Part shown: positions 6,879 through 59,800 of the stretch, one piece after another
How the letters are laid out: every line of letters starts with the position of its first letter
Numbering within the stretch: position 1 is the first letter of the stretch
Origin: Takakia lepidozioides
Taxonomy: Eukaryota; Plantae; Bryophyta
NCBI GenBank assembly: GCA_030704615.1
Contig: CM060731.1
Span: forward strand, 55,614,001 to 55,678,000
Direction: 5' to 3'
DNA length: 64,000 bases
Position numbers and translations under genes: made by a program
The notes under the pieces: generated by a model
Told to the model about the DNA's origin: nothing
The model's input: only the letters and a program-made list of their open reading frames with translations
Databases searched by the model: none

Positions 6879-6900
6879 CCTTACCACCGCAGGATTTCAG

Positions 6901-7401: not shown

Positions 7402-8146
7402 GCTTGGCTTGCGGTCCCAATACAATGGTACGCCCATCCTTTTCGGATAGTACAACTGTACTGCTGCCAGTACCTCAGACTCTGGCCACAGAAAGGTCTG
7501 ACATATGTCTTGCCTACCAGTAACCTGTTTTGCTCGAACTAAGATATTACTATATCGTTCACTTGTTTCCACGTGCATGTATTTTTGTATGTTGGAGGGT
7601 TCATGTTTTTCTGCTTTCCGAAAACTTGCTTTCCTCATTCGACCTCCGACAAGGAAATGCGGCGCCGCATTTCCAAGTATCGTCGTAGGTACTGGTAGAG
7701 GCGGCCTTCACCAACACCAAACCGCTCCAAAATTTCGCACGTGCGAACCCTAATGCGGCACCTTATTTCCCAGTTCAGTTGCAAACCTTTCTCGCCGAAT
7801 ACCCGAAGAAGACAGAATTGTGAAGTACTGCAGACTCTATTGGTGCAGACTCCATTGGTTCAATCGCGGCAAAAGGGTCAGCTTCATTCCAATGTTAAGG
7901 CATGTAAAACCGCGGAATACTCTATACATGCCAGTATGCGACGTCCTTTTGCAGTGGTATACGGATTTCCCGTTGCACGGTCACTTATTTCCATGAGCGG
8001 ATCTAAAAAACCATGAGCGGACTTGTTACTGACGACATATCTTCGCCGCATTACATGATCTGGAACGTCCAAAAACGGCAAGGTCAAATAAAAAACTATT
8101 ATTTTAATACTTGTTGAATCTGCCGCATTTCCAAATTTGGAGGAGT

Positions 8147-9298: not shown

Positions 9299-9355
9299 GC
9301 TCATGCTTTTTTTTTTTCCGCTCATGCTCATGCCGCTCATGAAATAGCAGCCCCC
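9299..9355 (+). repeat. Element X terminus (GCTCATG repeats + AAATAGCAGCCCCC)
   Basis: Abuts gypsy RT sequence (CATCTCATGGCC) at a sharp junction. Confidence 0.85.
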
Positions 9356-9985
9356 CATCTCATGGCCTGCCACAGTGTCCAATACCGCTTCTGTGAATGG
9401 CAAAGGGAAAAGATCTTTCTTCGTGCAAACATTCAACTTCTTATAGTTCACACAAACTCTCAGTTTACCATTCATCTTGGGAACTATCACAATGGGTGAC
9501 AACCAAGTTGTATACTCTATCGGGTATATAAACTTAGCCTCAGCCAACTTCTTGATCTCTTCTCCAACCTTCTGTGCATAGTTGGGATTCATTCTGTACC
9601 TTGCATGTTTAATTGGTACTGACCCTTGTTCCAGTTCAATCTTATGCTGACAGATCTCAGGTGGTATCCCTTTTAGATCCTCGTAGCTCCAAGCAAATAC
9701 ATCTCTGTATTTGATGAACAAACTCTTAGCTTCCTCAAAGAATTCTCGTTCCAAATCAGCTCCTACCTTCACCATCCTCGGTTCTTCTTCAGTTCCCACA
9801 TTCACTTCTCTCACCTGCTCATCAGCTGTGATTGTCCATCCAGTCATCACTTCATCCTGTAAACTCACAGTGGCTGGTTCCTCTAGGATTTCCATTTCTC
9901 TTTCTCTTTCTTCATAGAAATGTGGTGGGTAACTGCTGGTTTCCTCTTCAATTGGTGTTGTTGTCACTACACCACAACAGATACC
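9356..9985 (-). pseudogene. pol: Gypsy pol fragment (pre-RT and RT N-terminus)
   Basis: GICCGVVT...WLSPIVIVPK..GKLRVCVNYKKLN...VAGHEM, near-identical to ~659-1287. Confidence 0.92.
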
Positions 9986-24200: not shown

Positions 24201-24876
24201 TAAAGCTTTGAGGGACAACACAGCCAAGTCCACAGCAAGGTTCCTGTACGAGAACATACTTACACGATTTGGATGTCCCTTAGAATTTATCAGTGATCAA
24301 GGAAGTCACTTCATGAATGAGACCATTGAGTTATTGACTAAAGAGTTTATGATTGTGCATAGAAAGAGTACAACATATTACCCACAGGGTAATGGACAGG
24401 CAGAGGCTACCAACAAAATACTATGTACTATTGGCTAAGATAGTCAATGCAAACAGAACGGATTGGGATACAAAGCTGCTGACAGCTTTATGGTCATACA
24501 GGACTTCGTATAAAGTCACCACAAAGTATACACCATTCCAATTAGTTTATGGTATGGAAGCCTTACTTCCAGTGGAATTCCTGTTACCTACCATGAGAAC
24601 GGAGTGGGGAAAAAGAATGGAATTGCAAGACTCCATCAAAGTCAGGAAACATGAATTATACCATGTGGAAGAAATACGTGCTGATGCAGCTGATAATATG
24701 ACCAGAATTCAGATGAAGAGAAAGGAACAGTTTGATGAAGGCAAGTTAAAGACTTTTAAGACGGGGGATTTGGTTCTATGGTTGCAGAAGAAGGAAAGAT
24801 TCAAGCTTCTAAGCTTAAATCACCATGGAAAGGACCTTATGTCATACAAAAGATGTATGATAACAACACAGCCATG
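21131..24876 (+). pseudogene. pol: pol (PR-RT-RH-INT), frameshifts and stop, truncated at 24876 by element X
   Basis: 771-aa ORF with VFLDD, CDASG and integrase core. Identity to 3530-3550 ends at GCCATG. Confidence 0.93.
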
Positions 24877-25323
24877 CGCCGCATTCGCATTTTCGCTCCA
24901 ACTCATCAGACGCTGGACGGAAATACCTTGAAATGTGAACACGTGGAGCAACGGAATTGCTGCACATGTCGGCACTCTATCTGACTGAAGGGGCATGAGG
25001 CGGCGCGGCCTGACTGTTCGATAATGATGTTTTTTTTTCGGACGGCAGGCCTACCCTCAACGATTCGAATTTCGTAATGACGCAAACTCCCCGAGGAGAC
25101 ACTTTCGTCCAACCCTTTCGAACCCAAGTGGTGCATCACCGCCGTTTCATCTACTTTTGTAGTGTCTCCTCAGTCACCCCTCTCGCGCCCTTTCCATCTG
25201 CACTCTTTGGCCCTTTTTCCTCTCTCTGTTCTTCTTATGCTCGAACCTGAGAGGGGGGGAGTTCGTGCACCAGCCAGGAGACCTCGTCGCAAGCTCCGGA
25301 AATTATACTTCGGACGTAGGCCA

Positions 25324-28300
25324 ATGCCGAAGGGGAGGAAGCAGATGCGTCTACAGGAGGAGATTGCCATCTCCGAGCAGCAGGCCACTCAGGCAACCCA
25401 GCCACCAGTGAGAGCTCCATGCGATCGGGCTGCGCGCAGCTGATCGAGCACCGAACCCCCCATTTTGCTTCTGTAATTCTTAGACTGAATGCTAGGAGAC
25501 TTGAATGCAGAACATGTTTGCATGCCTAACAGGAAAGGTGGACGTGCTGGAGGGATCGCAGGAATCCGAAGAGCCGCAGGAAGAGTCCGAGGAGCTAGCT
25601 GCAGCACGTACACCCACCCGATCCCCGAGCGCGGGTATTCCTGCCGGGCCTAGCCCTCTGCGATTCAAAGACGCGTCTTCGAAGGGCAAGTTCAAAGTCC
25701 CAGAGATCGACTCGCGTTCTTCGGTCATGGAGAATCGCCAGCAGGGGTCGGGCCCTTCTCCAGCAAAGTCGAAGAAGAAGAGCCCGTCCCTCTACTGGCT
25801 TCTGAACCGGCTCAGGCCGATTCACCCCCCCCAACGCGAATGAAGCAGCAGGGTAAAAGACAGATTCAATTGCAGCAGACACCTTCACCTGCAAGGATGA
25901 GGAAGCAGAAGGCAATCAGGGCGACGGGCGAACAATCTCCCGCAAAACCGCTTCCACGAGCTGAAGCTCAGTTCCTGGAGGATTTCCCGCCTGCAGATGT
26001 TGGGGCCGACTCTGCTGCAGCGAAGGCAATGGGATCGACCGTTGATCTCGATTTGGTACCGGAGGAGGGTGCTGCCGCTCAACTTTCGCAGCAAGACCTC
26101 ACCACCGATGAGCAAGCAGGCCCGGAGAAGGCCTCTGCAATGGCAGAATTGCCCGCAGACAGGCCCCAGAGTGCAGCTCCAGTTGAGGATGCTCCAGCTG
26201 CTCAGCCACTACTGGCACCTACAGACATGTCTCCGGAGGATTTCAAAAGTGCAGCGGATAAAATGTTGGAGGAGACACACAGTAGCATTGGCAGAGTTCT
26301 GGGCAGCAGGGTATTCCAGCGGACTCTTCGAATCCCACTCTGTCGCATGGTCTCCCTTCCCATCGTCAGGCAGGCCCTTCCCGGAGATGTGGATAAGCTC
26401 AAGTTCGCATTTTGAGAAGGGTACCGTCTGGGATCGGCAGCGTTTTACGTTTCCATTGAGAATGAGGACGGCGAAACTCGTGGACCCACTGCTGATGAAT
26501 TGTCAACGTGGGATACCCACTGGCACACTCGCAACCACGAATTCGAGGCGACGCTGAAGGGTGATCCCGACTTCGGCCATATGTCGGGTAAAATGTTCTT
26601 TGTGTGGGACGGGAATCACCGACTTCTCGCCTGGTGGGAGTACATCAAGCAGAACCATGCCAAGCACATTGGCTGGCATTACATGGTGGAGTGTGTCATC
26701 CTCAAGGTGAAGGCGGCAGACTCCTCCCTGCTCAAGAATGCCATGGCGGACCTCAACTCGTAAGATACTCATACCCTCCCTAGCACGTTCGAAATGCGGT
26801 GCCGCATTTCGGTTTCCATTCTGGTTTGTTTCCGTGCTTCCGTGTACTGAACTGGAGAGTGTGCCTTGCAGGGTCACTGAAAATGCGTACGTGCATACCC
26901 ACATGGCACACATGCTGTACAGGGTGAGGAAAATGGTCTCACTGATCCGCAGATGTTTGCGGAAATGCTGGAGCCCGAGCTCATTCAGAAAGCCGTTGCA
27001 AAAACAGACCGGACATGGTATCGTCTCACTATGGATGGAATGGTGGAGGTGATATACGAAGTAAGTCGTCCTCCAATTTCCCTCTGCTCATCCTTCCCCA
27101 ATTTTCAGTAATGTTTCCACATGAATCGAATGTAACGCTTCTGCATGTTTTTGTTGGCAGTCAAACATCAAGCTGGATTTGGCCCATGCCAAACGCTTCT
27201 TCATGGAAAGTGAGGGGCAGGTGAAAACGTTGCAGTCATTGACTGAGCACTTGAAGGAAGCCGGTGTCAAGTCCAGAACCAAATACAAGTCAAAGCTTGT
27301 GAAGCTGGTGGCAATTGCAGATCCGACACTTGGAAAGGACTTCATCCCCGAGATTGCAAAACACTATTCTCGGGCCATGCAGCCGACCATGCAATTGGAG
27401 AAACTGCATCACCTCTCAACGGCATGTGTGGAGGCGAAAGAGAAGGTGAGGTTTCAATGCACTGAAGTTCCTTCCTAGCAATAGCCACTCTCTTCCAGCT
27501 CCTGACATTGGATCGGAAATGGCAGACACGGTGGCTGTCGATCTGGAATGCATCCGAGAGCATAAGGACAATGTGGTCTTTTCCACTCGAAGTTTCCGAC
27601 CCTGCAGTGGATGTGTGGCTCAACCGCATGACTTGGTGGTTCCAGGTAATTCAAGGTACTTCCCCAGATTTGCTTTTCTGAAATGAATTCCCTGAACTGC
27701 TACGTGACAATGCATTTGGGAATCGCAGGTAATGTCGAATGCGAAGGAGCAAGTCGTAATGCACACAAATTTGTTCGGCTTGTACGTCAAATGGGATGGA
27801 ACACAGACATTGGAAGACTACGTGACACGTTTCAGATGTGCGTACAAGGACAACCTTTTCGCCAGAGAGCTACAGACAGCAAGAAGGAGCGTGGAGTTTA
27901 CACATCAGGAGGGAGCGGGGAAAGCTGCAATGCGAATTGTTTACAGGTGAAGCACAGCTGCCCTTGTATGCGAAGCCTGGTTACGAGGTTTGTCTCGGAA
28001 ATGCGGCACCGCATTCGCATTTTATGTTTTCGGTGGCACTCTGCCAGTAGGTTGGTCTCAAGTTTTGCTCACGCATGCTGACTGCCTTGCAGGTATATGA
28101 AATACGTGCTCCTTCAGACAGGGGCCCTGGCTCAAGAGCCCCCTTCTTCATGGCTTGGACCGTGGCGGGCCCAAGCTGTGTCTACACACCCGAGATGCAG
28201 AAACAATGGCATCCCGCGCATCTCGTTGGATGCCCGTGGTACCTGGACATGTCTGGCGGTATTGTTGACGAGTCTGAGAAAGATCTGCACGCCTTGGCAG

Positions 28301-30443
28301 AAGAGAAGAGAAAGGAAAGACGTGTCCCTGCTGGGCCAAAGTCGGCAAAGGAATCTGCTGCTCTGGAAGAATCCAGAAAGGCAGCTGAGATGGCACAAAA
28401 GACGGTGGATGCAGCTGTGCAGGCCCAACAGAAGGGGTCGAAGAAGAGGACTCGCCAGCAAGGAGCAGCTGTTGTGACACCCGCCAAAACGAAGAAGCAG
28501 AAACAGCCTGTTCAGGAAGAGGGTGAGGAAGAGGACTCCGATGGAGACTTTGCAACCAGCCCACCCCCCAAACGCAGGCTGCCTCCCCTGTGCCCACCGT
28601 TGTCACGAGAGGCACGAGAACTGGCTCGGCAAAGAAGGCACTCTTCAACCCCCCAGGGGGGCACCCTTTCGAGCCGGTGGAAATGAAGAGGCCGAAAGTG
28701 GCTCCCGAAACAGTAGTCCAGTGTGTAAATGAGAGTTTCTTGGCGGCTTTGGATGGACGGGCAGCCAAGTTGGCATACATGAAGACCATGGAGGGTCTGA
28801 AGGGCAGAGCACTGAAGAAGGCGACTGCCGAAGAGCCTTCCGACACCCCAGGATTTCAGAATATGGTCTCGTTCTTTGAGAGGGTGTGTGCAGACAAGGA
28901 TTGTAGGAGGGGCGGAAATGCCACCGAGTGGTCTTGCGATATGATCATCTTGGATATTCCGGACGGAGAGCCTGTGGAAGGACTGCAAGCTTTGCCATCT
29001 TGGAACAGGTACTCGGAGGACTTTTGGAAGAAAGGATTCGGGCTTGCCCGCATGGTGTTGGACGACAGAGGCTGTGTGGTTGTCCTGGCGAGCAGAGGAA
29101 AAAACACTCAGACAGGAATTGCGAAGTGGACCCGCAAGAGCGCCGTCCCGATTCTGAAAAAGAAGTGGACGTGCATCAACACACTGGGCCTTCGGTCGGA
29201 AGGGAAGAAGGTGATTACGACACTGGCACTCGTCCATTCATTTGCTTGGGTGTTTTCAAATGCGGTGCCGCATTCGGTTTCTAATCGTTTTCCCCCTGTG
29301 TATGCAGACGAAGCAGTTCGATGCATACTGCTTTGTGAAGGAGAACTCCACCTTTGCTTTCCGGAAGGAGGGAGGAAAGGTTGACCCGAACTGCGACCCA
29401 CTCGATTACGACGTTCTGTTCAACAACGTTCCCAAGGAACTTCTCCCTCATAGCCTCACTTCAACGGAACCCCTGCGGTACTCACGGACTCGGAGCCCTG
29501 CCTTCATTCAGACAATTATGGAGACATGCACAGACGTGGAGGGCACAGTGCTCGACCTCATCTGTGGGACAGGTATGCAGAATCTTGATCTATGCTGTTC
29601 TGCAAATTCTCGTTAGGATGTAGTTCGCAACATCTGAAGCGCCATGTGGTAATGTGTGGATGGCATTGTAACAGGTGCCTCAATGTGGGCTGGGCGGTTT
29701 TCCGACCGGCACCTCTTTGCCTACGAGGAGGATTCATCCGTGTGGGGATCCCATCTGGAGGGGCTGCAACGGAATGTGAAGGCTCCCGACAGAGCGGAAG
29801 TCTCCTCGGATTCGTCGGAGTCCGAGGAAGACACAGTGGACATTGATGCGGAGGAGAACCCGGAATACGAGTGAGTGCAAACATTGTAAGTTTGCAAAGC
29901 CTTCTGGGTCATTTATGTCAAACGAATTTCCCGACTGTGGTTCTCATTAGTCTCGTTGATGATTGTCATGTGCAGGATTGCAGGGTCCGGGTCGAAACAT
30001 GTAGGGCCTACACTTCCTGCCAGGAAGAATGTCCCGTTCTTTGCGAGGGCCGATTCATGACGAGCCCGGTGAGGGACTACTCCCTTCCTAGTTATGCAGC
30101 TAAACTCGCAAATACAGCGATTAGAAGAAGTGAGAATCCCAGTAAAGTAGAGCAGATTTTGGAGAGGGCTAGGGAGGACAGAAGGATAAGGAAAGAGTTG
30201 GCAGCAGCTCAGACAGGTAGACGGGTACGAAAGTACATATGTGATTCAGCGGATGAGAGCGACGCAGACAGGGAGGAAGACGACCCAACGGAGGTGAGAT
30301 GGACAGTTCCGCAAGGGGAAGATGGGATTTTCGAAAGCCTGGCCAACGAGCAGTCCGCTGGAGATGAGAGAGGCACTGAGGGGGTGGAGGAGGAGCAGGA
30401 CAGTCTAGAACAGGATGAGGATTCGGATGATTTTCAAGATTAA
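25324..30443 (+). CDS. Spliced ~1,400-aa ParB/Srx-like domain + N6A/N4C DNA methyltransferase-fold protein (this copy has a few 1-bp indels and a CGA>TGA at 26413)
   Basis: Exons ~25324-25400 (uncertain), ~25535-26759, 26872-27060, 27161-27445, 27499-27645, 27729-27946, 28093-29210, 29308-29572, 29675-29870, 29976-30443, with GT-AG sites in compatible phases. Motifs FFVWDGNHRLLAW; CDMIILDIPDG; LARMVLDDRG; TDVEGTVLDLICGT^GASMWAGRFSDRHLFAYE. Confidence 0.75.
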
Positions 30444-30578
30444 TAGAATTTTAATGAAGTCTCTGTAAATGTAAATTCTCTTCCAGAGTATATAAAGGAA
30501 ATTCTGCCCGACATTCGTGACCCCTCTCCAGTGTGCATTCCAGCCACACAATCGCCCAAACCACGACGCTCCAAAATC

Positions 30579-31371
30579 GAAATGGGGCACCGCATTTCCA
30601 AAATTTTGGGGAACTCTAAGAACCTCTTTTGAAATGCGGCACCGCATTTCCAAAACAGGGGAGGGACTAAATTTTCCATTTCAATGTTGGCATAGTAAAA
30701 AGTAATCTGAATTGGAAATGCGGTGCCGCATTTCCAAAATTTCCTTTGTCCACACGCCAGTTTTGGCCTCTCCCACTCATTGCATGGATGCCACCACGCT
30801 TACAGAGGTCGAACAACGAGGTCGAACAAGGAGGTCGACATGGCGGGATTGAAAATGCGGTGCCGCATTTCATATTGGGGATGGTCGTTGTTCGAACTGC
30901 AGGCCCATCAGCAAAAATTGGCACCGCATTCCATTGTTAAAAAAAAGTCGATGACGGACATGGAAATGCGGCGCCGCATTTCCAGAACGGACATCGCAAT
31001 TTGTCCATTTGCAGACCCTCTCTCGGAAATGCGGTAACGCATTCCATCGCGCTGGTCGGAAATGTCACACTTTTCGAAGTGTTGTACGGAAATGCGGCAC
31101 CGCATTCCCTTGTCCAAAAAGAAGTTTCCATTGCCAAGCTGGAAATGCGTCGCCGCATTTGCAATGCCAACCTCGTTTTCTGATCAATTTATAGACCCGT
31201 GTTGGTATTTCGTGTACCTGGACGGAAATGATGCACCGCATTTTCTTGTCCCACATGGAAATGCATGCCGCATTTCGGTCCCGACATGGAAATGCGGCGC
31301 CGCATTTCGGTGCCGACATGGAAATGCGGCCCGCATTTCGATGGCGACATGGAAATGCGGTGCCACATTTC
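30579..31371. repeat. Array of ~15 palindromes GAAATGCGG-NN-CCGCATTTC
   Basis: Starts at 30579, 30631, 30715, 30852, 30963, 31026, 31089, 31142, 31225, 31258, 31289, 31321 and 31352, plus degenerate copies. Confidence 0.92.
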
Positions 31372-31628
31372 GATGTCCGACATGGCGTTACTCTGGTATA
31401 TTCTTGACACATGACTCACATACCGGTTACTCTGCTATATTCATCCGGACAGACACATTGTAGAAATGAGACATCAAATTGTAAACAGTGGGCCAATTCC
31501 GACAGTTATTCAACACAATGAAGCACAATCATACAGAAGTGAGGTACGATGGGTTTATTGATCGGACACGATGTCTCACATTTACCAACTGCAGACAAAA
31601 CTAAGCCCTTCCTCCTTCTACATGGGCT

Positions 31629-32207
31629 TCACCAAGTCGACGGAACTTCGATACCCCTCAAAACAAGCTCATCACTGCTGCGGCACCTCGAGGTAAACTG
31701 CAATTCGGTCGTTCTGCTGCCCTTGCTGGAGCCGACGACAATGTCATGTCCATCAATGATACCACCATCATACATTGACAAGGTCACTGTGGGCCTCATG
31801 TGCCCGTGCGATTCGTCTTCGCAACGCAGCCGAATGTCTCCATACACTGGAAGAGCGGAGTGATCTGCACGTATATAGTTTTCCCCGGTGCCGTCCTCCC
31901 TGGTCCACTGGCAGCAGTTCCAGCGCCAAAGCGAGGCCGTGCGTGATCTATCCGGCATCCCTTTCCAGCTTGGTATATCGAGGTCAACAATTTTCAGGAC
32001 CCACGGACCGCATTGACCCTCGCCCTCACCTCGCTCAAAGCGGTAATAGCCCTCCAGATACTCCATTGCGCGCAAAGACTCTTGCTTGATTCCAGCAGCG
32101 TCTGTGAAAACAGAGAGCCAGACAATGATGTCTCCTGATTCTGGTTTGAACATAGCATAATCGTGGCCATGATAAGGGCAGTCGGCTGGATTTCGGCGGC
32201 ACGGCAT
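31629..32207 (-). CDS. Orphan ~192-aa beta-rich protein A (MPCRRNPADCP...), intronless
   Basis: Aligns end to end with its paralog at 32758-33321 (DYAM, SGDI, FERG, RWNCC.WT, YGDIR, DGG.I.G.DIVV, ELVLR..EVP). Confidence 0.75.
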   Translation of the reverse strand: MPCRRNPADCPYHGHDYAMFKPESGDIIVWLSVFTDAAGIKQESLRAMEYLEGYYRFERGEGEGQCGPWVLKIVDLDIPSWKGMPDRSRTASLWRWNCCQWTREDGTGENYIRADHSALPVYGDIRLRCEDESHGHMRPTVTLSMYDGGIIDGHDIVVGSSKGSRTTELQFTSRCRSSDELVLRGIEVPSTW

Positions 32208-32464
32208 CCTTGAAAAAGAGTAGCGGAGTACGCTCAATGACAGCAGCTCCCGGATGGAGGAGGAGCAGCGCGGTGGCTGGAAAAAGTTCAAGCTAACGCT
32301 GCAATTCCTCACAAACACTCCAGGGCACATTTAAATTTCCCCCCTACAGGATCCTGGACCGATGAAGATTGGCTGCTGCATGAATGTAGCCGTTTCAGTT
32401 TCCTACCCTGCCATGCAAACTATGGGCAGTCACTGCCAGGTGGGCCGATAGCCACTGGACACGA

Positions 32465-32528
32465 CGAAGTCCATCCCCTCTTCGATGTAAATGCGGCGCC
32501 GAATTTCCATCCGGGGGGATGGACTTCG
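32465..32528. promoter_or_regulatory. 64-bp hairpin centred on a palindrome copy in the bidirectional intergenic region
   Basis: CGAAGTCCATCCCC (32465-32478) pairs with GGGGATGGACTTCG (32515-32528) around AAATGCGGCGCCGAATTT. Confidence 0.75.
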
Positions 32529-32757
32529 GTGGCAGATCTCAAACTATAACTTGTTGATGAGAAAGATGTATGGCTTCATCCACCGCTGGCGTGATGAACA
32601 CGTTCCACCTCCGTCGGTGGGTACGTGTGACCCAGATGCTCCATTATTGGAGGCCGGACTGCTCTTCCGCTTCGTATCATTTCCAAAATCTAAGGGCTTC
32701 GTAGCTGTCCGCAAGGTCATCGGCATCCAAGTCGTCCTCAGGTCCTCCTTTGCAAGG

Positions 32758-33321
32758 ATGCCGTGCTTCCGGAACCGGGACGACTGCCCCTTTGGAGGCA
32801 TCGATTATGCAATGTATTCGGCCACATCGGGAGACATTGTTATCTGGTACACAGATTACACAGAAGATACTGGTTCGATTGTGGAAACATTGGTGGCTTT
32901 TGAGTATATCGTAGGCCACTACGCCTTCGAGCGGGGTGACGATCTTGGTTTGAGGAGTCCGTGGCTCCTGCGCATCCTCGATTCCGATTTTCCCAGCTAC
33001 GACGGTCACCCATGCAGAAGAAGGCGCACTGCTATGCTGTTGCGGTGGAACTGCTGCCACTGGACGTGGGTGGACTCCATCGGAGAGACCTATTCTCCTC
33101 GAGGAGTGCGCTCCTCTTCTCCATTGTATGGGGACATTCGCATTGGTGTGGACGACGAAAACGTGAAGATTTCCATATTCGATGGTGGTATGATTGAAGG
33201 GCAGGACATTGTGGTGAACATCACTAGGGGCGGTACAACGGCTGCAATCGACTTTACATGGAGGAGCCCCATGACTCATGAGCTAGTTCTGAGAGCAGTC
33301 GAAGTCCCATTGACAACGTGA
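32758..33321 (+). CDS. Orphan ~187-aa beta-rich protein B (MPCFRNRDDCP...), intronless
   Basis: Paralog of 31629-32207 with the same CAAGG-ATGCCGTGC start context. Retained in all four X copies. Confidence 0.75.
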   Translation: MPCFRNRDDCPFGGIDYAMYSATSGDIVIWYTDYTEDTGSIVETLVAFEYIVGHYAFERGDDLGLRSPWLLRILDSDFPSYDGHPCRRRRTAMLLRWNCCHWTWVDSIGETYSPRGVRSSSPLYGDIRIGVDDENVKISIFDGGMIEGQDIVVNITRGGTTAAIDFTWRSPMTHELVLRAVEVPLTT

Positions 33322-33701
33322 CTTGTATTCAGTAGGCACAGGGCTCAAGATTTGAGGGCACAATCAGCACAGTAGACGTGCTTCAAATGCAATTCATGTG
33401 GATCAATAAAAACCTCATTGTGCCCTCTTTTTATTCTATTCTGTGTCCATCGTTCCGAGAATGCGTCATTGCTCATTTCGTTTGGGATTGGGAGTGTGGG
33501 TGATTTTGCAAATGGCTGGTAGGCTGAAATGGGCCCCCATTGTACAGAGCAGTACCACCCTACCATTCGCGAAACATTGCCTTTCAATATATAATTCTAA
33601 ATAACATTGTCGAACCTCCTTCATCGGGAGGTCCTTCTCCCCCTATGACCGTGGCACCCTAAACCCTATTCCCGCGGACACTCATTTCTGGAAAATAGTG
33701 C

Positions 33702-33784
33702 TGCTCATGTTTTTTTTCCACACTTACGACTCTGCTCATGGCTCATGCCGCTCATGGCTCATGGCTCATGAAATAGCAGCCCCC
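33702..33784 (+). repeat. Element X terminus
   Basis: (GCTCATG)n-AAATAGCAGCCCCC abutting LTR sequence. Confidence 0.88.
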
Positions 33785-34082
33785 GTGACAGCTGTGTCAA
33801 GCTGTGACTGGCTGTGTGAAACTGTGACGGGCTGTGACTGGCTGTGCGACTGTGTTTGGCTGTGTCGGGCTGTGACTGGTGTGTCGACTGTGGACGGGCT
33901 GTGTTGGCTGTGTCGGCTGTGACGACCGTGACGGGCTGTGTTGGCTGTGACGGACTGTGTAACCCCCCTCTACAGTACGCTGCTGTCACCCCTAAGGTTC
34001 CTGTTGGTCTCAGTCTGTGCAAAAATTAAGGGTACCCTACAGATCCCGTATAAGTGTCTAAGTCCCAGACAGTCCTCTAACA
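33785..34082 (-). repeat. Truncated LTR (5' ~300 bp) inserted in the extra ORF of another copy
   Basis: The TGTTAGAGG start at 34082 is preceded by coding sequence, not a PPT. Cut by the X terminus. Confidence 0.88.
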
Positions 34083-37000
34083 CTGTTGTATCCTCTAACT
34101 CTTGCTGTAATTTGAGAGTGACCTCCTCATCGACCTTGTTTGCACACTCAGTGGCAAGTCGAGCCTCAAACTCCTTCCTGAGTTCCTCCCTCAAAGCTGC
34201 CAATTGGGTAGTTGGAACATGGGATTTGACATAAGTGCCCAACAAATTAAGTGTCCTGCTTATGGAACTCATAAGCATGGCCTGTTGAGGGTCATCATCG
34301 TGAGCTTGCTGCTGTTCTCCCTGATCCTCAACAGTGTGATGCCTCACGAACCATTCAGGCCATTGCCCTACCAGATTTTCTTCCTGAACCACCTCATCCA
34401 CCACAGGTGCTGCAGTGTCTTGATATTCTTCCCCTTGTACCTCCATCACAAGTGTGGTTATTACCTGCACAGCAGGGTTTCCCTTGGACACTCGCTGCAC
34501 CTCTGGAATCATTGTTTCCCTTATCAAGCCAGAATTTTCATAGAGAAGGTCACCCTTCTCAATTTCGGCCACGACCTGCTCTGTAGTGGGAATGTCTAAT
34601 CTTTCTCCTTCCTGAGCAATTGGGGTTGATGTCACATCATATACTAACTGTGGAACCTCTAAAACAACAGAGTCATTTGGTTGTGGTGGCTGTGACATCG
34701 AAGTGACTTCCTCCTCCCTCTCTGAAGGCCCTGCTTCCAATAATAGCAGCTCTCTGTGCTGCCGTGCCCCTTCCTGCACAAGAGTTTGGGAACATTATCA
34801 TGCGGTTTCCGTGAAGCCAGTGGATCCGCCACTACAGTCTTTCCCCGCCTCTGTCTCTTAGACTGGGGTTGCACTGCCAGTCCACCCTCACTGTGTGAAG
34901 AGCCTTGCTCTTCAATTGCAGTGGTTTCTGTTTCAAACACTCCCATCTCCTTTCTTTCCCGAGTATCAAGTATGCAAGAATCAAGAATTATTTGAGCAAT
35001 GATTGGACCAGACACAACGATCGGAGACTTTGCAGTAGTGCCCTGTAACCTCTTCATCTCGTCCACCAAGCCGTTGTACATTAACTCCGCCCAAGCGACA
35101 TCCTCTCCCCTCAAAGCTTTCAGGATCTCCTCTGTGAAGGACCTGCTCAAATACTGTTGGTTCTGTTTCATGGCAAACAGAACGTTCAAGATTTGGCCAA
35201 CCTCCCTAAGCCCTGGGTACTCGGCTTTGGTACAAGCAAAACCTTGAGTTTTAAAGAAACTCCCTTCTTGGAACAAATTCCCTATCTGCAATCTTGCCCT
35301 GTGCTCATCCACCTCCACATGTCCTGATGGCAAATCAAATAGTTGCTGCAGGTACTGGGGAGTAATTTATATATCTACTCCCCTCACCTGAGTAACTCCT
35401 GTCCGAGGCTCAAAGTTTTGAAGGAATTGTATCATGAACTGCCGATGATGCAACGACCAGTCCTTGCGTAACAATCCCTCCAAACGCAGCTCCTTCAGTA
35501 GCTGCACCGCCTGTGGTGCAGCGATCGTTTGCTTCTGTAAGATTGTGGTGCTTTTCACCCTGCTATCTTCCATTCCTCTCACTCTCTTCATTCTGGACAA
35601 ACAGAAAGGTTTTGGCTGTAACAATTGAAGAAATGCCTGCAGGGCACAAAGCATAAACGTATGGTTGCCACAAAATGATATGGGTAATTTCTTGTAAGCC
35701 TGCGGGGCTTGCAAGCATCGATTAAGAGAAAAGATACTCTCTGTTCTTCTATCTTCGTGCCACTGCGTAAGTAGTATCGCGAGCGTATAGTCTGTTAGTT
35801 CCTCCATAGATTCAAAGCTATAGCATTGATGGTCTGTCCCGTCGAGACGCCCGTTACTTGGAACGATACCGACTCTTGCGCTTAAAATCCCTCCAATTTC
35901 TTGATCCTGCTTCTGGCTTATGATTGGCTGTAACTGCTGTGACTGGATTTTAGATTTAATTTCCTTCCATAGATTTTCCACTCTGGACTGTCCACTAGGA
36001 TAGCACATGTGACATGGATTTCGCTTTTTGGTACTTCTAAAGGGTTTCGTTACCCTTTCCCCGTATGCATTAATGGGCCCATAATAAGTTAATGTGTCGG
36101 GTAGATACTTTGACGGCCAATTTTGTCTTCTTCCTTGATGACACTTGCCTTTGCAATCCATGTCCGGCTATGTGTCTCGCCCTGGCGTCCACGTGTCCAT
36201 TTCTAAACGTGCCTCCGTCTACTTTTCCGCCGGCCACTCTCCGAATGTTAACCCACGTCCACCTGTCACTGATCCTATGGATTGTGTAACCCCAGTAGGC
36301 TGTGTTGAGCTGTGACAGGCTGTGTCATACTGTGGTACGTTGTGATAGGCTGTGTTGCACTGTGGTAAGCTGTGATAGGCTGTGACACGCTGTGGTAGGT
36401 TGTGATAGGCTGTGTGATACTGTGATGGGCTATGATAGGCTGTGTCGCGCCTTGATGGGCTGTGATAGACTGTGTCGCGCCGTGATGGGTTGTGATAGGC
36501 TGTGCCACACAATGATGGGCTGTGATAGGCTATGCCACACTGTGATGGGCTGTGATAGGCTGTGTTGCGCCTGTACTGCCCGCCCTGGTCATATACGCTC
36601 GGCCTAGCGACAAGTGCTCCATACTCCATTGGTATCAATGGCGCAGCCCGTGACTGCTTCTGCGTTTCAACATGCAAATCATGTTGCAATGGTTTGTCAT
36701 GGATACCACTGTACCCCTTCAACTTATTGGCATTGACTCTTCACGGTTTGTAACATGGCGGTGTTGTTATCATACATCTTCTGTATGACATAAGGTCCTT
36801 TCCATGGTGATTTAAGTTTAGAAGCTTTAATCTTTCCCTTCTTCTGCAACCAGAGAACCAAATCTCCCGTCTTAAAAGTCTTTAACTTGCCTTCATCAAA
36901 CTGTTCCTTTCTCTTCATCTGAATTCTGGTCATGTTATCAGCTGCATCAGCACGTACTTCTTCCACATGGTATAATTCATGTTTCCTGACCTTAATTGAA

Positions 37001-39320: not shown

Positions 39321-42300
39321 GGGGGCTGCTATTTCATGAGCCATGAGCAGAGTCGTAAGTGTGAAAAACACATGAGCAGCACTATTTTCCGGAAATGAGT
39401 GTCCGCGGGAATAGGGTTTAGGGTGCCACGGTCATAGGGGGAGAAGGACCTCCCGATGAAGGAGGTTCGGCAATGTTATTTAGAATTATATATTGAAAGG
39501 CAATGTTTCGCGAATGGAAGGGTGGTACTGCTCTGTACAATGGGGGCCCATTTCAGCCTACCAGCCACTTGCAAAATCCACCCACACTCCCAATCCCAAA
39601 CAAAATGAGCAATGACGCATTCTCGGAACGATGGACACAGAATAGAATAAAAAGAGGGCACAATGAGGTTTTTATTGATCCACATGAATTGCATTTGAAG
39701 CACGTCTACTGTGCTGATTGTGCAATCAAATCTTTAGCCCTGTGCCTACTGAATACAAGTCACGTTGTCAATGGGACTTCGACTGCTCTCACAACTAGCT
39801 CATGAGTCATGGGGTCCTCCAGGTAAAGTCGATTGCAGCCGTTGTACCGCCCCTAGTGATGTTCACCACAATGTCCTGCCTTTCAATCATACCACCATCG
39901 AATATGGAAATCTTCACGTTTTCGTCGTCCACACCAATGCGAATGTCCCCATACAATGGAGAAGAGGAGCGCACTCCTTCAGGAGAATAGGTCTCTCCGA
40001 TGGGAGTCCACCCATGTCCAGTGGCAGCAGTTCCACCGCAACAGCATAGCAGTGCGCCTTCTTCTGCATGGGTGACCGTCGTAGCTGGGAAAATCGGAAT
40101 CGAGGATGCGCAGGAGCCACGGACTCCTCAGACCAAGATCGTCACCCCGCTCGAAGGCGTAGTGGCCTAGGATATACTCAAAAGCCACCAATGTTTCCAC
40201 AATCGAACCAGTATCTTCTGTGTAATCTGTGTACCAGATAACAATGTCTCCCGATGTGGCCAAATACATTGCATAATTGATGCCTCCAAATGGGCAGTCG
40301 TCCCGGTTCCGGAAGCACGGCATCCTTGCAAAGGAGGACCTGAGGACGACTTGGATGCAGATGACAATGACCTTGCGGACAGCTACGAAGCCCTTAGATT
40401 TTCGAAATGATGCGAAGCGGAAGAGCAGTCCGGCCTCCAATAATGGAGCATCTGGGTCCCACGTACCCACCGACGGAGGTGGAACGTGTTCATCACGCCA
40501 GCGGTGGATGAACCCATACATCTTTCTCAACAACAAGTTATAGTTTCAGATCTGCCACCGAAGTCCATCTCCCCGAATGGAAATTCGGCGCCACATTTAC
40601 ATCGAAGAGGGGATGGACTTCGTCGGTCCAGTGGCTATCGGCCCACCTGGTAGTGAGTGCCCATAGTTTGCATGGCAGGGTAGGAAACTGAAATGGCTAC
40701 ATTCATGCAGCAGCCAATCTTCATCGGTCCAGGATCCTGTAGGGGGGAAATTTAAATGTGCCCTGGAGTGTTTGTGAGGAATTGCAGCGTTAGCTTGAAC
40801 TTTTTCCAGCCACCGCGCTGCTCATTTCTACAATTTGTCTGTCCGGATGAATATACCAGAGTAACCAGTATGAGAGTCATGTGTCAAGAGTATACCAGAG
40901 TAACGCCATGTCGGCATTGAAATGCGGCACCGCATTTCCATGCCGGACAAGGAAATGTGGTGCCGCATTTCAATGCCGACATGGAAATGTATGAACCGCA
41001 TTTCAGTGTCGGACAATGGGATGCGGTGCATCATTTCCGTCCAGGTACACGAAATACCAACACGGGTCTATAAATTGGACAGACAACGAGGTTGGCATTG
41101 CAATGCGGCGACGCATTTCCAGCTTGGCAATGGAAACTTCTTTTTGGACAAGGGAATGCGGTGCCGCATTTCCGTCCAACACTTCGAAAAGTGTGACATT
41201 TCCGACCAACGCGATGGAATGCGTTACCGCATTTCCGTGAGTGGGTCTGCAAATGGACAAATTGCGATGTCCGTTCTGGAAATGCGGCGCCGCATTTCCA
41301 TGTCCGTCATCGACTTTTTTTTGACAATGGAATGCGGTGCCAATATTTTGCTGACCTGCCTGCAGAAAGACCATCCCCAATATGGAAATGCGGCACCGCA
41401 TTTCCAATTCCACCATCTCGACCTCCTTGTTCGACCTCTGTAAGCGTGGTGGCATCCATGCAATGAGCGGGAGAGGCCAAAACTGGCGTGTGGACAAAGG
41501 AAATTTTGGAAATGCGGCACCGCATTTCCAATCGGCCGATTACTTTTTACTATGCCAACATTGAAATGGAAAATTGAGTTGCCAAAATTTTGGAAATGCG
41601 GTGCCCCATTTCTGATTTTGGAGCGTCGTGGTTTGGGCGATTGTGTGGCTGGAATGCACACTGGAGAGGGGTCACGAATGTCGGGGAGAATTTCCTTATA
41701 TACTCTGGAAGAGAATTTACATTTACAGAGACTTCATTAAAATTCTATTAATCTTGAAAATCATCCGAATCCTCATCCTGTTCTAGACTGTCCTGCTCCG
41801 CCTCCACCCCCTCATTGCCTTTCTCATCTCCAGCGGACCTCTCGTTGGCCAGGCTTTCGAAAATCCCATCTTCCCCTTGCGGAACTGTCCATCTCACCTC
41901 CGTTGGGTCGTCTTCCTCCCTGTCTGCGTCGCTCTCATCCGCTGAATCACATATGTACTTTCGTACCCGTCTACCTGTCTGAGCTGCTGCCAACTCTTTC
42001 CTTATCCTTCTGTCCTCCCTAGCCCTCTCCAAAATCTGCTCTACTTTACTGGGATTCTCACTTCTTCTAATCGCTGTATTTGCGAGTTTAGCTGCATAAC
42101 TAGGAAGGGAGTAGTCCCTCACCGGGCTCGTCATGAAGTCGGCCCTCGCAAAGAACGGGACATTCTTCCTGGCAGGAAGTGTAGGCCCTACATGTTTCGA
42201 CCCGGACCCTGCAATCCTGCACATGACAATCATCAACGAGACTAATGAGAACCACAGTCGGGAAATTCGTTTGACAAAAATGACCCAGAAGGCTTTGCAA

Positions 42301-46804: not shown

Positions 46805-49800
46805 CACACTGGGCCTTCGGTCGGAAGGGAAGAAGGTGATTACGACACTGGCACTCGTCCATTCATTTGCTTGGGTGTTTTCAAATGCGGTGCCGCATTC
46901 GGTTTCTAATCGTTTTCCCCCTGTGTATGCAGACGAACCAGTTCGATGCATACTGCTTTGTGAAGGAGAACTCCACCTTGCTTTCCGGAAGGAGGGAGGA
47001 AAGGTTGACCCGAACTGCGACCCACTCGATTACGACGTTCTGTTCAACAACGTTCCCAAGGAACTTCTCCCTCATAGCCTCACTTCAACGGAACCCCTGC
47101 GGTACTCACGGACTCGGAGCCCTGCCTTCATTCAGACAATTATGGAGACATGCACAGACGTGGAGGGCACAGTGCTCGACCTCATCTGTGGGACAGGTAT
47201 GCAGAATCTTGATCCATGCTGTTCTGCAAATTCTCGTTAGGATGTAGTTCGCAACATCTGAAGCGCCATGTGGTAATGTGTGGATGGCATTGTAATAGGT
47301 GCCTCAATGTGGGCTGGGCGGTTTTCCGACCGGCACCTCTTTGCCTACGAGGAGGATTCATCCGTGTGGGGATCCCATCTGGAGGGGCTGCAACGGAATG
47401 TGAAGGCTCCCGACAGAGCGGAAGTCTCCTCGGATTCGTCGGAGTCCGAGGAAGACACAGTGGACATTGATGCGGAGGAGAACCCGGAATACGAGTGAGT
47501 GCAAACATTGTAAGTTTGCAAAGCCTTCTGGGTCATTTATGTCAAACGAATTTTCCCGACTGTGGTTCTCATTAGTCTCGTTGATGATTGTCATGTGCAG
47601 GATTGCAGGGTCCGGGTCGAAACATGTAGGGCCTACACTTCCTGCCAGGAAGAATGTCCCGTTCTTTGCGAGGGCCGATTTCATGACGAGCCCGGTGAGG
47701 ACTACTCCCTTCCTAGTTATGCAGCTAAACTCGCAAATACAGCGATTAGAAGAAGTGAGAATCCCAGTAAAGTAGAGCAGATTTGGAGAGGGCTAGGGAG
47801 GACAGAAGGATAAGGAAAGAGTTGGCAGCAGCTCAGACAGGTAGACGGGTACGAAAGTACATATGTGATTCAGCGGATGAGAGCGACGCAGACAGGGAGG
47901 AAGACGACCCAACGGAGGTGAGATGGACAGTTCCGCAAGGGGAAGATGGGATTTTCGAAAGCCTGGCCAACGAGCAGTCCGCTGGAGATGAGAGAGGCAC
48001 TGAGGGGGTGGAGGAGGAGCAGGACAGTCTAGAACAGGATGAGGATTCGGATGATTTTCAAGATTAATAGAATTTTAATGAAGTCTCTGTAAATGTAAAT
48101 TCTCTTCCAGAGTATATAAGGAATTCTGCCCGACATTCGTGACCCCTCTCCAGTGTGCATTCCAGCCACACAATCGCCCAAACCACGACGCTCCAAAATC
48201 GGAAATGGGGCACCGCATTTCCAAAACAGGGGAACTCTAAGAACCTCTTTTCGAAATGCGGCACCGCATTTCCAAAACAGGGGAGGGACTAAATTTCCAT
48301 TTCAATGTTGGCATAGTAAAAAGTAATCTGAATTGGAAATGCGGTGCCGCATTTCCAAAATTTCCTTTGTCCACACGCCAGTTTTGGCCTCTCCCACTCA
48401 TTGCATGGATGCCACCACGCTTACAGAGGTCGAACAACGAGGTCGAACAAGGAGGTCGACATGGCGGGATTGAAAATGCGGTGCCGCATTTCAGTATTGG
48501 GGATGGTCGTTGTTCGAACTGCAGGCCCATCAGCAAAAATTGGCACCGCATTCCATTGTTAAAAAAAAGTCGATGACGGACATGGAAATGCGGCGCCGCA
48601 TTTCCAGAACGGACATCGCAATTTGTCCATCTGCAGACCCTCTCTCGAAATGCGGTAACGCATTCCATCGCGCTGGACGGAAATGTCACACTTTTCGAAG
48701 TGTTGTACGGAAATGCGGCACCGCATTCCCTTGTCCAAAAAGAAGTTTCCATTGCCAAGCTGGAAATGCGTCGCCGCATTTGCAATGCCAACCTCGTTTT
48801 CTGATCAATTTATAGACCCGTGTTGGTATTTCGTGTACCTGACGGAAATGATGCACCGCATCCCACATTTGCCGCATTTCGTCCGACATGGAAATCAAAT
48901 CAATGCATTTTTTTTTCAATGTCCGACATGGCGTTACTCTGGTATATTCTTGACACATGACTCACATACCGGTTACTCTGCTATATTCATCCGGACAGAC
49001 ACATTGTAGAAATGAGACATCAAATTGTAAACAGTGGGCCAATTCCGACAGTTATTCAACACAATGAAACACAATCATACAGAAGTGAGGTACGATGGGT
49101 TTATTGATCGGACACGATGTCTCACATTTACCAACTGCAGACAAAACTAAGCCCTTCCTCCTTCTACATGGGCTTCACCAAGTCGACGGAACTTCGATAC
49201 CCCTCAAAACAAGCTCATCACTGCTGCGGCACCTCGAGGTAAACTGCAATTCGGTCGTTCTGCTGCCCTTGCTGGAGCCGACGACAATGTCATGTCCATC
49301 AATGATACCACCATCATACATTGACAAGGTCACTGTGGGCCTCATGTGCCCGTGCGATTCGTCTTCGCAACTCAGCCGAATGTCTCCATACACTGGAAGA
49401 GCGGAGTGATCTGCACGTATATAGTTCCCCGGTGCCGTCCTCCCTGGTCCACTGGCAGCAGTTCCAGCGCCAAAAGCGAGGCCGTGCGTGATCTGTCCGG
49501 CATCCCTTTCCAGCTTGGTATATCGAGGTCAACAATTTTCAGGACCCACGGACCGCATTGACCCTCGCCCTCACCTCGCTCAAAGCGGTAATAGCCCTCC
49601 AGATACTCCATTGCGCGCAAAGACTCTTGCTTGATTCCAGCAGCGTCTGTGAAAACAGAGAGCCAGACAATGATGTCTCCTGATTCTGGTTTGAACATAG
49701 CATAATCGTGGCCATGATAAGGGCAGTCGGCTGGATTTCGGCGGCACGGCATCCTTGAAAAAGAGTAGCGGAGTACGCTCAATGACAGCAGCTCCCGGAT

Positions 49801-56830: not shown

Positions 56831-59800
56831 GGGGGCTGCTATTTCATGAGCCATGAGCAGAGTCGTAAGTGTGAAAAAACATGAGCAGCACTATTTTCCG
56901 GAAATGAGTGTCCGCGGGAATAGGGTTTAGGGTGCCACGGTCATAGGGGGAGAAGGACCTCCCGATGAAGGAGGTTCGGCAATGTTATTTAGAATTATAT
57001 ATTGAAAGGCAATGTTTCGCGAATGGTAGGGTGGTACTGCTCTGTACAATGGGGGCCCATTTCAGCCTACCAGCCACTTGCAAAATCCACCCACACTCCC
57101 AATCCCAAACAAAATGAGCAATGACGCATTCTCGGAACGATGGACACAGAATAGAATAAAAAGAGGGCACAATGAGGTTTTTATTGATCCACATGAATTG
57201 CATTTGAAGCACGTCTACTGTGCTGATTGTGCCAAAATCTTTAGCCCTGTGCCTACTGAATACAAGTCACGTTGTCAATGGGACTTCGACTGCTCTCAGA
57301 ACTAGCTCATGAGTCATGGGGCTCCTCCAGGTAAAGTCGATTGCAGCCGTTGTACCGCCCCTAGTGATGTTCACCACAATGTCCTGCCTTTCAATCATAC
57401 CACCATCGAATATGGAAATCTTCACGTTTTCGTCGTCCACACCAATGCGAATGTCCCCATACAATGGAGAAGAGGAGCGCACTCCTTCAGGAGAATAGGT
57501 CTCTCCGATGGAGTCCACCCACGTCCAGTGGCAGCAGTTCCACCGCAACAGCATAGCAGTGCGCCTTCTTCTGCATGGGTGACCGTCGTAGCTGGGAAAA
57601 TCGGAATCGAGGATGCGCAGGAGCCACGGACTCCTCAGACCAAGATCGTCACCCCGCTCGAAGGCGTAGTGGCCTAGGATATACTCAAAAGCCACCAATG
57701 TTTCCACAATCGAACCAGTATCTTCTGTGTAATCTGTGTACCAGATAACAATGTCTCCCGATGTGGCCAAATACATTGCATAATTGATGCCTCCAAATGG
57801 GCAGTCGTCCCGGTTCCGGAAGCACGGCATCCCTTGCAAAGGAGGACCTGAGGACGACTTGGATGCAGATGACAATGACCTTGCGGACAGCTACGAAGCC
57901 CTTAGATTTTGAAATGATGCGAAGCGGAAGAGCAGTCCGGCCTCCAATAATGGAGCATCTGGGTCCCACGTACCCACCGACGGAGGTGGAACGTGTTCAT
58001 CACGCCAGCGGTGGATGAACCCATACATCTTTCTCAACAACAAGTTATAGTTTCAGATCTGCCACCGAAGTCCATCCCCCCGATGGAAATTCGGCGCCGC
58101 ATTTACATCGAAGAGGGGATGGACTTCGTCGTGTCCAGTGGCTATCGGCCCACCTGGTAGTGAGTGCCCATAGTTTGCATGGCAGGGTAGGAAACTGAAA
58201 TGGCTACATTCATGCAGCAGCCAATCTTCATCGGTCCAGGATCCTGTAGGGGGGAAATTTAAATGTGCCCTGGAGTGTTTGTGAGGAATTGCAGCGTTAG
58301 CTTGAACTTTTTCCAGCCACCGCGCTGCTCATTTCTACAATTTGTCTGTCCGGATGAATATACCAGAGTAACCAGTATGAGAGTCATGTGTCAAGAGTAT
58401 ACCAGAGTAACGCCATGTCGATGAATGCGGCACCGCATTTCCATGCGGACAAGGAAATGTGGTGCCGCATTTCAATGCGACATGGAAATGCCGCATTTCG
58501 TGTCGGACAATGGATGCGGTGCATCATTTCCGTCCAGGTACACGAAATACCAACACGGGTCTATAAATTGGACAGACAACGAGGTTGGCATTGCAATGCG
58601 GCGACGCATTTCCAGCTTGGCAATGGAAACTTCTTTTTGGACAAGGGAATGCGGTGCCGCATTTCCGTCCAACACACTTCGAAAAGTGTGACATTTCCGA
58701 CCAGCGCGATGGAATGCGTTACCGCATTTCCGTGAGTGGGTCTGCAAATGGACAAATTGCGATGTCCGTTCTGGAAATGCGGCGCCGCATTTCCATGTCC
58801 GTCATCGACTTTTTTTTTACAATGGAATGCGGTGCCAATTTTTGCTGATGGGCCTGCAGTTCGAAAGGACCATCCCCAATATGGAAATGCGGCACCGCAT
58901 TTTCCAATTCCCCATCTCGACCTCCTTGTTCGACCTCTGTAAGCGTGGTGGCATCCATGCAATGAGCGGGAGAGGCCAAAACTGGCGTGTGGACAAAGGA
59001 AATTTTTGGAAATGCGGCACCGCATTTCCAATCGGCCGATTACTTTTTACTATGCCAACATTGAAATGGAAAATTGAGTTGCCAAAATTTTGGAAATGCG
59101 GTGCCCCATTTCTGATTTTGGGAGCGTCGTGGTTTGGGCGATTGTGTGGCTGGAATGCACACTGGAGAGGGGTCACGAATGTCGGGCAGAATTTCCTTTA
59201 TATACTCTGGAAGAGAAATTTACATTTACAGAGACTTCATTAAAATTCTATTAATCTTGAAAATCATCCGAATCCTCATCCTTCTAGACTGTCCTGCTCC
59301 GCCTCCACCCCCTCAGTGCCTTTCTCATCTCCAGCGGACTGCTCGTTGGCCAGGCTTTCGAAAATCCCATCTTCCCCTTGCGGAACTGTCCATCTCACCT
59401 CCGTTGGGTCGTCTTCCTCCCTGTCTGCGTCGCTCTCATCCGCTGAATCACATATGTACTTTCGTACCCGTCTACCTGTCTGAGCTGCTGCCAACTCTTT
59501 CCTTATCCTTCTGTCCTCCCTAGCCCTCTCCAAAATCTGCTCTACTTTACTGGGATTCTCACTTCTTCTAATCGCTGTATTTGCGAGTTTAGCTGCATAA
59601 CTAGGAAGGGAGTAGTCCCTCACCGGGCTCGTCATGAAGTCGGCCCTCGCAAAGAACGGGACATTCTTCCTGGCAGGAAGTGTAGGCCCTACATGTTTCG
59701 ACCCGGACCCTGCAATCCTGCACATGACAATCATCAACGAGACTAATGAGAACCACAGTCGGGAAATTCGTTTGACAAAATGACCCAGAAGGCTTTGCAA

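Follow-up and report, generated by a model that had tools for sequence, protein, structure and literature searches.

The 64-kb window, the whole stretch of Takakia DNA analyzed here, contains four copies of one element (X1-X4), which were delineated by self-comparison and are located among pieces of Gypsy retrotransposons (Table 1). Copy X1 carries an intron-containing gene that combines a ParB-like domain with a beta-class methyltransferase fold, an array of 20-bp palindromes beside this gene, two divergent open reading frames (ORFs A and B) and a right terminus with short repeats.

Table 1. Coordinates of the element copies, genes and palindromic motifs in the 64-kb window
Feature	Position	Strand	Details
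Element copy X1	24877-33784	+	self-comparison
Element copy X2	39320-46304	-	self-comparison; array at 40919..41612 (-)
Element copy X3	46805-51324	+	self-comparison; array at 48202..48864 (+)
Element copy X4	56830-64000	-	self-comparison; array at 58422..59112 (-)
Left junction of X1 with Gypsy DNA	24877..24895	+	starts with half motif
ParB-like + beta-class methyltransferase-fold gene	25505..30443	+	contains introns; start uncertain
ParB/Srx-like domain	26317..26759	+	DGNHRLLA motif at 26608
Single motif copy	26791..26810	.	predicted intron 26760-26871; relatives' ORFs end at the same position
Single motif copy	27998..28017	.	predicted intron 27947-28092, GT-AG call only
Methyltransferase-fold exons	28899..29575	+	motif IV DIPDG at 28953; motif I VLDLICGTG at 29548
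Single motif copy	29257..29276	.	predicted intron 29211-29307; Riccia model with extra sequence at the matching place
Array of 20-bp palindrome GAAATGCGG-YR-CCGCATTTC	30579..31371	.	14 copies: 13 clear and one decayed (30913)
ORF A	31629..32330	-	233 aa; paralogue of ORF B, 63% nucleotide identity
Single motif copy	32488..32507	.	between divergent ORFs A and B
ORF B	32491..33321	+	276 aa, divergent to ORF A
Right terminus	33700..33784	+	7-bp GCTCATG repeats and 20-bp end common to X1-X4 and sister element Y
Two motif copies 96 bp apart, fragment Z	7654..7769	.	downstream of SWIM-domain ORF, ~570 bp from Z end

Element X is likely to be a DNA transposon, as judged from its sequence, because it occurs in high copy in the read contigs of organism A and its conserved terminus is found at several insertion sites, joined to different Gypsy positions. 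Neither a target duplication nor, in a Pfam scan of 12 X1 ORFs, a transposase for X was found in the window, and no inverted copy of the right terminus was found at the left end in the 64 kb. The block at 31368-46304 is repeated at 48914-63794 over 15 kb with 97.7% identity across a 500-N gap, and X3 and X4 may thus be a segmental, haplotype or assembly duplicate. The assembly contains many 1-bp indels. ORF A is absent from X2 and X4, a deletion that also occurs in read contigs (joint 31547-32315). Neither ORF A nor ORF B has known relatives; ORF B gave no Pfam match and an empty word-index homologue search, and its predicted fold is poor (pLDDT 36).

The boundaries of the element family show several further features. 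At three junctions (9356, 33784 and 39320), the C-run end of the element meets the target at a C. No matching left end for these C-run ends was found in the 64 kb, where X1 and the related fragment Z begin abruptly within Gypsy DNA. At the left junction of X1, the sequence opens with the right-hand half of the palindrome, a pattern suggestive of a break or recombination event within the motif. Between 33784 and 39320, a Gypsy fragment of 5.5 kb separates two copies whose tails face each other and which form a large inverted repeat. The Gypsy elements carry CTGTG-rich minisatellites of 9-10 bp at 3750-3995, 10637-10870, 17420-17674, 33791-33960 and 36300-36565.

The array lies directly downstream of the ParB-like/methyltransferase-fold gene, as the preliminary description of this DNA had stated, and begins 136 bp past the predicted stop codon. 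When the motif starts were derived anew, the 20-bp palindrome and all twelve spacings came out exactly as that description had given them. The clear copies start at 30579, 30631, 30715, 30852, 30963, 31026, 31089, 31142, 31225, 31258 (19 bp), 31289, 31321 (19 bp) and 31352, and additional decayed palindrome units are found near 30995 and 31059. The palindrome has 50 matches in the window at three or fewer mismatches, against 0.03 expected from shuffled sequence. At four or fewer mismatches, 54 matches are found, 52 of which are in X1-X4 and two in fragment Z, and the ~33 kb of window sequence outside the element family, consisting of flanking retrotransposon DNA, contains none. The motif is thereby tied to the element family in 54 of 54 cases.

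The two halves of the motif and its center differ in their variability. The preliminary description left the 2-bp center as NN, and it instead proves to be pyrimidine-purine in every copy (54/54: CG 14, CA 19, TG 17 and TA 4), counts that are inflated because the copies descend from one another and because CA and TG represent one change in opposite orientations. In a non-redundant motif set, 12 of 17 central CGs are altered, compared with 4 of 34 arm CGs (Fisher p=4e-5, a value inflated by shared descent among the copies). The conserved arms fit base-specific contacts. The variable pyrimidine-purine center fits either deamination of host 5-methylcytosine or restriction to a bendable step.

Outside the window, read contigs of organisms B and C carry the motif itself amid array sequence that fails to align. 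Public collections contained no array: viral contigs gave no match to the motif, prokaryote genomes gave three isolated matches and metagenome contigs gave 13, with mixed centers that are pyrimidine-purine in 4 of 13. None of these 13 metagenome contigs matched the ParB-like protein family. We read the isolated matches in metagenomes and prokaryote genomes as chance.

The spacing of the palindromes follows the DNA helix. Neighboring copies in the X1 array are 52, 84, 137, 111, 63, 63, 53, 83, 33, 31, 32 and 31 bp apart and, measured center to center, 11 of these 12 spacings deviate by at most 2 bp from a multiple of 10.5, which bears out the phasing originally described. Against a null in which every spacing was jittered by half a turn, the phasing is significant at a period fixed to 10.5 (p<1e-4) and with the period left free over 6-20 bp (p=0.0014, best period 10.5), and it persists after spacings below 40 bp, that is, the terminal tandem, are dropped (p=0.0013). 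The sole off-phase interval, 111 bp, contains the decayed site at 30913 and divides into 61 and 50 bp; when this site is counted in, 12 of 13 spacings are in phase.

Loss of phasing in other copies had been named at the outset as evidence that would speak against the reading, and such a loss was not found. The spacings are in phase in 8 of 8 cases in X2, 6 of 7 in X3 and 6 of 8 in X4, of which X4 is weak by itself (p=0.02 at the fixed period and 0.44 at the free period), and the phasing of X2-X4 is not independent of that of X1 because the copies are close relatives in an indel-rich assembly. X1 has one site more than X2 and X4, which is located 52 bp from its neighbor, and the 84-bp interval is retained. 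A 13-bp tandem duplication at 30805-30838 within the array shifts one spacing from 124-125 bp (~12 turns) to 137 bp (13 turns).

Could a host transcription factor or nucleosome geometry have selected the sites and their spacing? A periodicity of ~10 bp is typical of nucleosomal DNA, and the copy at 32488 sits between divergent ORFs. However, the best period of 10.4-10.5 is closer to that of free DNA than to the nucleosomal period of ~10.2, and the motif has no match in the window outside the element family. We consider a host origin of the pattern very improbable.

Tandem duplication accounts for part of the array. The right part is a tandem of an extended palindrome with a unit of 32-33 bp, and each 63-bp interval corresponds to two tandem units with a decayed middle unit. 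The preliminary statement that the spacers mostly differ in sequence therefore holds outside the tandem and fails for the right part and for the 63-bp intervals, which contain decayed middle units. The spacings 52, 84, 137, 50, 53 and 83 are not multiples of 31.5 and are offset by 10-13 bp from such multiples. Nevertheless, these six spacings lie near whole turns (p=5e-4 under a null of tandem growth plus random indels, and p=0.007 when 53 and 83 are taken to be duplicates of 52 and 84). Tandem ancestry thus explains the phasing only in part: plain ancestry from a ~31-bp unit, raised beforehand as a possible trivial cause, covers the right part and the 63-bp intervals (with a unit of 32-33 bp) and does not cover the six other spacings. 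A 136-bp higher-order duplication (52+84 versus 53+83) was also considered and rejected; the matching spacer pairs were absent from the 25 of 156 spacer comparisons that reached p<0.05. The strong single-strand folding of the region (z -12) is attributable to the repetition of palindromes and does not count as evidence for a structured RNA; an Rfam search of 24800-34000 gave no match.

Read contigs provide a second set of spacings. When they were mapped onto the array, 55 joints with intervening letters were obtained, and the motif-to-motif distances at the best 12 of these 55, by depth, are 33, 33, 53, 63, 63, 63, 43, 33, 53, 33, 54 and 64 bp. None of these 12 deviates by more than 2 bp from a multiple of 10.5 (p ~1e-5 for all rows and ~1e-3 for the six distinct values). 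The distances away from the tandem unit in the same best 12 of 55 (53, 43, 53 and 54) are also whole turns (p=0.004); a 53 and the 43 seem to occupy one position, one turn apart, and one 63-bp spacing is retained despite a diverged spacer. Several of the 12 rows correspond to one another by homology across diverged subfamilies and so indicate that spacer length is kept while sequence drifts, not that the spacings arose independently. In one contig of organism C, two motifs, judged from their positions alone, are 164 bp apart, which corresponds to 15.6 turns and is off phase.

These data bear on the possibility that the array arose neutrally from a palindromic minisatellite with a 32-33-bp unit, in which case phasing would follow from the unit and from biased indel lengths. 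The tandem right part, the composite 63-bp intervals and the frequency of 33 and 63 among the spacings from the best 12 of 55 read joints are in keeping with such an origin. The six native and four read-derived spacings that are off the unit yet amount to whole turns argue against it, as do the conservation of the arms while the spacers diverge, which extends across organisms, and the presence of isolated motif copies in predicted introns. We therefore regard a purely neutral minisatellite as improbable.

The gene beside the array encodes a member of a land-plant protein family. It is frameshifted in X1, where many of the breaks are probably assembly indels, and its motif IV precedes motif I, which is the beta-class order. 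A search with the ParB-like exon returned 395 clusters at E values up to 0.001, and the named family members are from the liverwort Riccia and from Adiantum ferns. The ParB exon of the window gene and its methyltransferase exons both have matches in a single Riccia protein of 1207 aa, and 33 Riccia paralogues were returned in the homologue search. The ParB-like and methyltransferase-fold gene of the preliminary description is thus real as to its exons, and its folds are supported by the model of a Riccia relative described below. Profile annotation is sparse. Pfam gave no ParB match for the window protein or its relatives, PF01555 was found in 6 of 102 aligned family members, and ParB_N occurs on 11% of members among Atlas neighbors, which we take as a lead. 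A word-index homologue search with the ParB exon and a sequence-profile search of the PDB were both empty, and protein-based locus searches of prokaryote genomes and viral contigs yielded no relative.

Structural comparison was performed with the predicted structure of a 1104-aa Riccia relative (mean pLDDT 70), not of the window protein itself. The C-terminal domain of this model is clearly a beta-class amino-methyltransferase fold, as it matches M1.HpyAVI (Foldseek E 2.7e-6) and MboIIA (Z 15.5, rmsd 3.2, 193 aligned residues). An N-terminal ParB/Srx fold has moderate support in the model: residues 110-448 align to KorB 52-245 (Z 7.1, rmsd 6.0, 178 aligned), the model also aligns to PadC (Z 6.4, rmsd 4.2, 132 aligned), with Z scores in a range that may reflect a common arrangement, and it aligns to phage ParB-like models. 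At this Z and rmsd, the span of the KorB alignment may include a putative site-binding helix-turn-helix domain after the predicted ParB fold.

Two motifs of the family have drifted from their bacterial counterparts. The nucleotide box reads [DE]GNHR rather than GxRR in 103 of the 121 proteins with a readable box (203 scanned), and the window copies have DGNHRLLA. The canonical catalytic motif IV is [DNS]PP[YFW], which is found in none of the 19 readable rows of 34 aligned; the aromatic residue is kept in one. In the window, motif IV is present in three copies and reads DIPDG in each. GxRR is described as the CTP-binding motif of the ParB family in the accessible text of PMC10770331, and the Marchantia enzymes have TSPPY as motif IV (bioRxiv 2021.02.12.428880, accessible text). 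The term ParB is absent from the accessible text of that preprint and of bioRxiv 2026.08.24.746577, and the ParB-HTH methyltransferases of chlorophytes and fungi form a different group according to the available portion of PMC4738411. A ParA-like gene gave no Pfam match among the 12 X1 ORFs, and the left part of the element may be missing. Given the GNHR box, the lack of a detected ParA and a motif IV that is neither DPPY nor SPPY, the array is suggested to be a sopC/parS-like docking array and not part of a ParABS system. Of the ParB/parS-like platform that was first suggested, the phased sites beside a ParB-like gene and the sopC-like design are retained, and ParABS membership is not. The accompanying idea of methylation sites becomes doubtful.

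According to the methylation idea, the methyltransferase encoded by the element would modify the palindromes with 4mC or 6mA and thereby mark the element's DNA. Such a role is compatible with the predicted beta-class amino-methyltransferase fold, the motif I-like stretch and the fact that the motif center changes solely by C-to-T type steps. However, the pattern at the center is that expected from host 5mCpG decay, and motif IV is non-canonical in all 19 readable relatives as well as in the window. Moreover, methyltransferase sites are typically far shorter than 20 bp, and phasing is not required for methylation alone. Although a role of this type has been proposed for an Ectocarpus protein (PMC12477816, accessible text), we consider it a poor prospect here.

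The motif is not confined to the array. The predicted introns of the gene, which together occupy at least ~13% of its span, contain all three intragenic copies. Additional copies lie between ORFs A and B and beside the SWIM-domain gene of fragment Z, so the motif is not tied only to the 3' side of the gene. The region 6879-9356 comprises nested relatives of X, namely fragment Z and sister element Y. Fragment Z carries the end of a SWIM-domain gene, two palindromes and GCTCATG repeats in both orientations. It abuts the motif I exon of Y. The ParB-methyltransferase tail of Y is 42-63% identical to that of X in protein, and the terminal 20 bp of Y are identical to those of X, but no array was found between the ParB-methyltransferase gene of Y and the end of the element. 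The motif beside the SWIM gene in Z and the lack of an array after the Y gene indicate that the link between motif and gene is not exclusive.

The main rival to a ParB-like binder is accordingly a transposition protein supplied in trans. The palindromes may bind the family transposase or another such protein, for example the product of the SWIM gene, and function as an internal synapsis enhancer. The Z motif next to the SWIM ORF at ~570 bp from an end and the array-free Y gene are consistent with this possibility, and phased sites would suit an ordered transpososome. On the other hand, the X array is located 2.4 kb from the end of the element and predicted introns as deep as 7 kb within the element contain single copies, the Pfam scan of the 12 X1 ORFs revealed no transposase in X, and the terminal GCTCATG repeats resemble what we take to be the more usual transposase-binding repeats. 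We consider this explanation unlikely, although it is the most serious competitor.

What, then, would the phased array be used for? We lean toward the view that the ParB-like protein of the element itself binds these sites on one face, probably in self-regulation or anti-silencing. The adjacency of its gene, the intronic copies within that gene and the precedent in the protein family make the ParB-like protein the strongest candidate for binding the palindromes, and we give this assignment a slight preference. In the proposed mechanism, a dimer would read the two 9-bp arms, probably via the helical domain that follows the ParB fold, and the pyrimidine-purine step would be the bend point of the bound palindrome. 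Adjacent dimers on one face would assemble cooperatively into a complex in which the DNA is wrapped or looped, following the proposal made for SopB on sopC, and such an interaction would be the reason that whole-turn spacing is kept. The methyltransferase-fold domain, probably inactive as a catalyst or altered, would serve as a DNA- or base-binding module. The purpose would be self-recognition, through which the element's own non-coding DNA is marked and is kept expressed or shielded from host silencing.

The last step, in which marking keeps the element expressed or protects it from silencing in the manner of VANC and VirB, is the weakest of the proposal and is advanced only tentatively. The ratio of observed to expected CpG, as a proxy, is 0.56-1.20 across X versus 0.25-0.38 in the flanking Gypsy DNA. 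CpG-to-GpC transition ratios are 1.8-2.1 in X versus 0.8-5.1 in four Gypsy pairs and give no clear sign of protection from methylation. A more elaborate version, in which a nucleotide-gated ParB-type clamp loads at the phased array and spreads, and the dead methyltransferase fold reads bases and blocks silencing, seems unlikely. If this clamp version were true, a bacterial centromere device would have been reused as an anti-silencer in eukaryotic chromatin. More generally, if the preferred self-binding reading is true, the element would represent a second route to plant transposon self-recognition, unrelated to VANC, and a ParB-family protein would act on nuclear chromatin.

The pairing of a ParB-like accessory gene with an adjacent inverted-repeat array has already been published for algal transposons. 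In the red alga Bostrychia, the ParB-like PAG3 accessory genes of Plavaka elements lie beside tandem inverted-repeat arrays, and binding and modification of the element by its own protein have been proposed (bioRxiv 10.1101/2025.02.11.637652, accessible text). In the brown alga Ectocarpus, Sola1-1_Ec32 encodes an accessory protein with ParB and N4C/N6A methyltransferase domains that was proposed to bind and modify its own element (PMC12477816, accessible text). Features of the PAG3/Sola1-1_Ec32 type are present in Takakia as well, namely a ParB-like domain fused to a DNA-modifying fold and an adjacent inverted-repeat array. Compared by description only and within the available portions of the two papers, PAG3 resembles the Takakia gene as an accessory gene of a DNA transposon with an N-terminal ParB-like domain and adjoining arrays, but is fused to a 2OG-oxygenase instead of a methyltransferase fold; Sola1-1_Ec32 shares the ParB-like and methyltransferase domains in a DNA transposon, but has a transposase, whereas the plant family lacks a canonical motif IV. 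Neither algal paper gives a motif or a binding test in its accessible text; that on PAG3 describes no phasing, and its supplements may give spacings, and the string "palindrom" does not occur in the main text of the Ectocarpus paper. The literature covered, largely without subscription papers, contains no report of such arrays in land plants, of their phasing or of a binding test. What appears new is the occurrence in a land plant, the phasing to the helix and the precise motif. The Takakia element offers an exact 20-bp candidate site, a whole-turn rule and natural one-turn variants, together with a land-plant protein family with a drifted catalytic motif. This combination of exact site, geometric rule and variants makes the self-binding proposal from algae directly testable.

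Among better characterized systems, sopC of the F plasmid is the model for the design. As described in the accessible text of PMC3177203, it consists of 16-bp inverted repeats with a constrained 2-bp center that are spaced 43 bp, or four turns, apart, such that SopB dimers are placed on the same face. The Takakia array shares the inverted repeats, the constrained center, the whole-turn spacing and the position beside a ParB-family gene. However, sopC has 16-bp sites with a purine-pyrimidine center and a uniform 43-bp spacing, acts with SopA and serves plasmid segregation, whereas the Takakia sites are 20 bp long with a pyrimidine-purine center, are spaced by a mixture of 3-13 turns, have no ParA found with them and reside in a nuclear mobile element. 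VirB of Shigella provides a precedent for anti-silencing, because this ParB-family protein acts against H-NS and is loaded at the parS-like palindromes virS (PMC10770331, accessible text). It differs in being bacterial, in retaining GxRR and binding CTP, and in having no methyltransferase-fold domain. The VANC proteins of Arabidopsis VANDAL elements recognize 8-9-bp non-palindromic motifs in introns and intergenic DNA that have spread by tandem repeats, and demethylation has been shown for them (accessible text of PMC5735166 and PMC10398659). No VANC-family protein or Mutator transposase was matched by Pfam among the 12 X1 ORFs. VANDAL elements and the Takakia element are alike in a transposon-specific motif that occupies introns and intergenic DNA, in growth by tandem repeats and in accessory genes on a DNA transposon, but VANC has no ParB domain and its motif is not palindromic, in contrast to the palindromic motif of Takakia.
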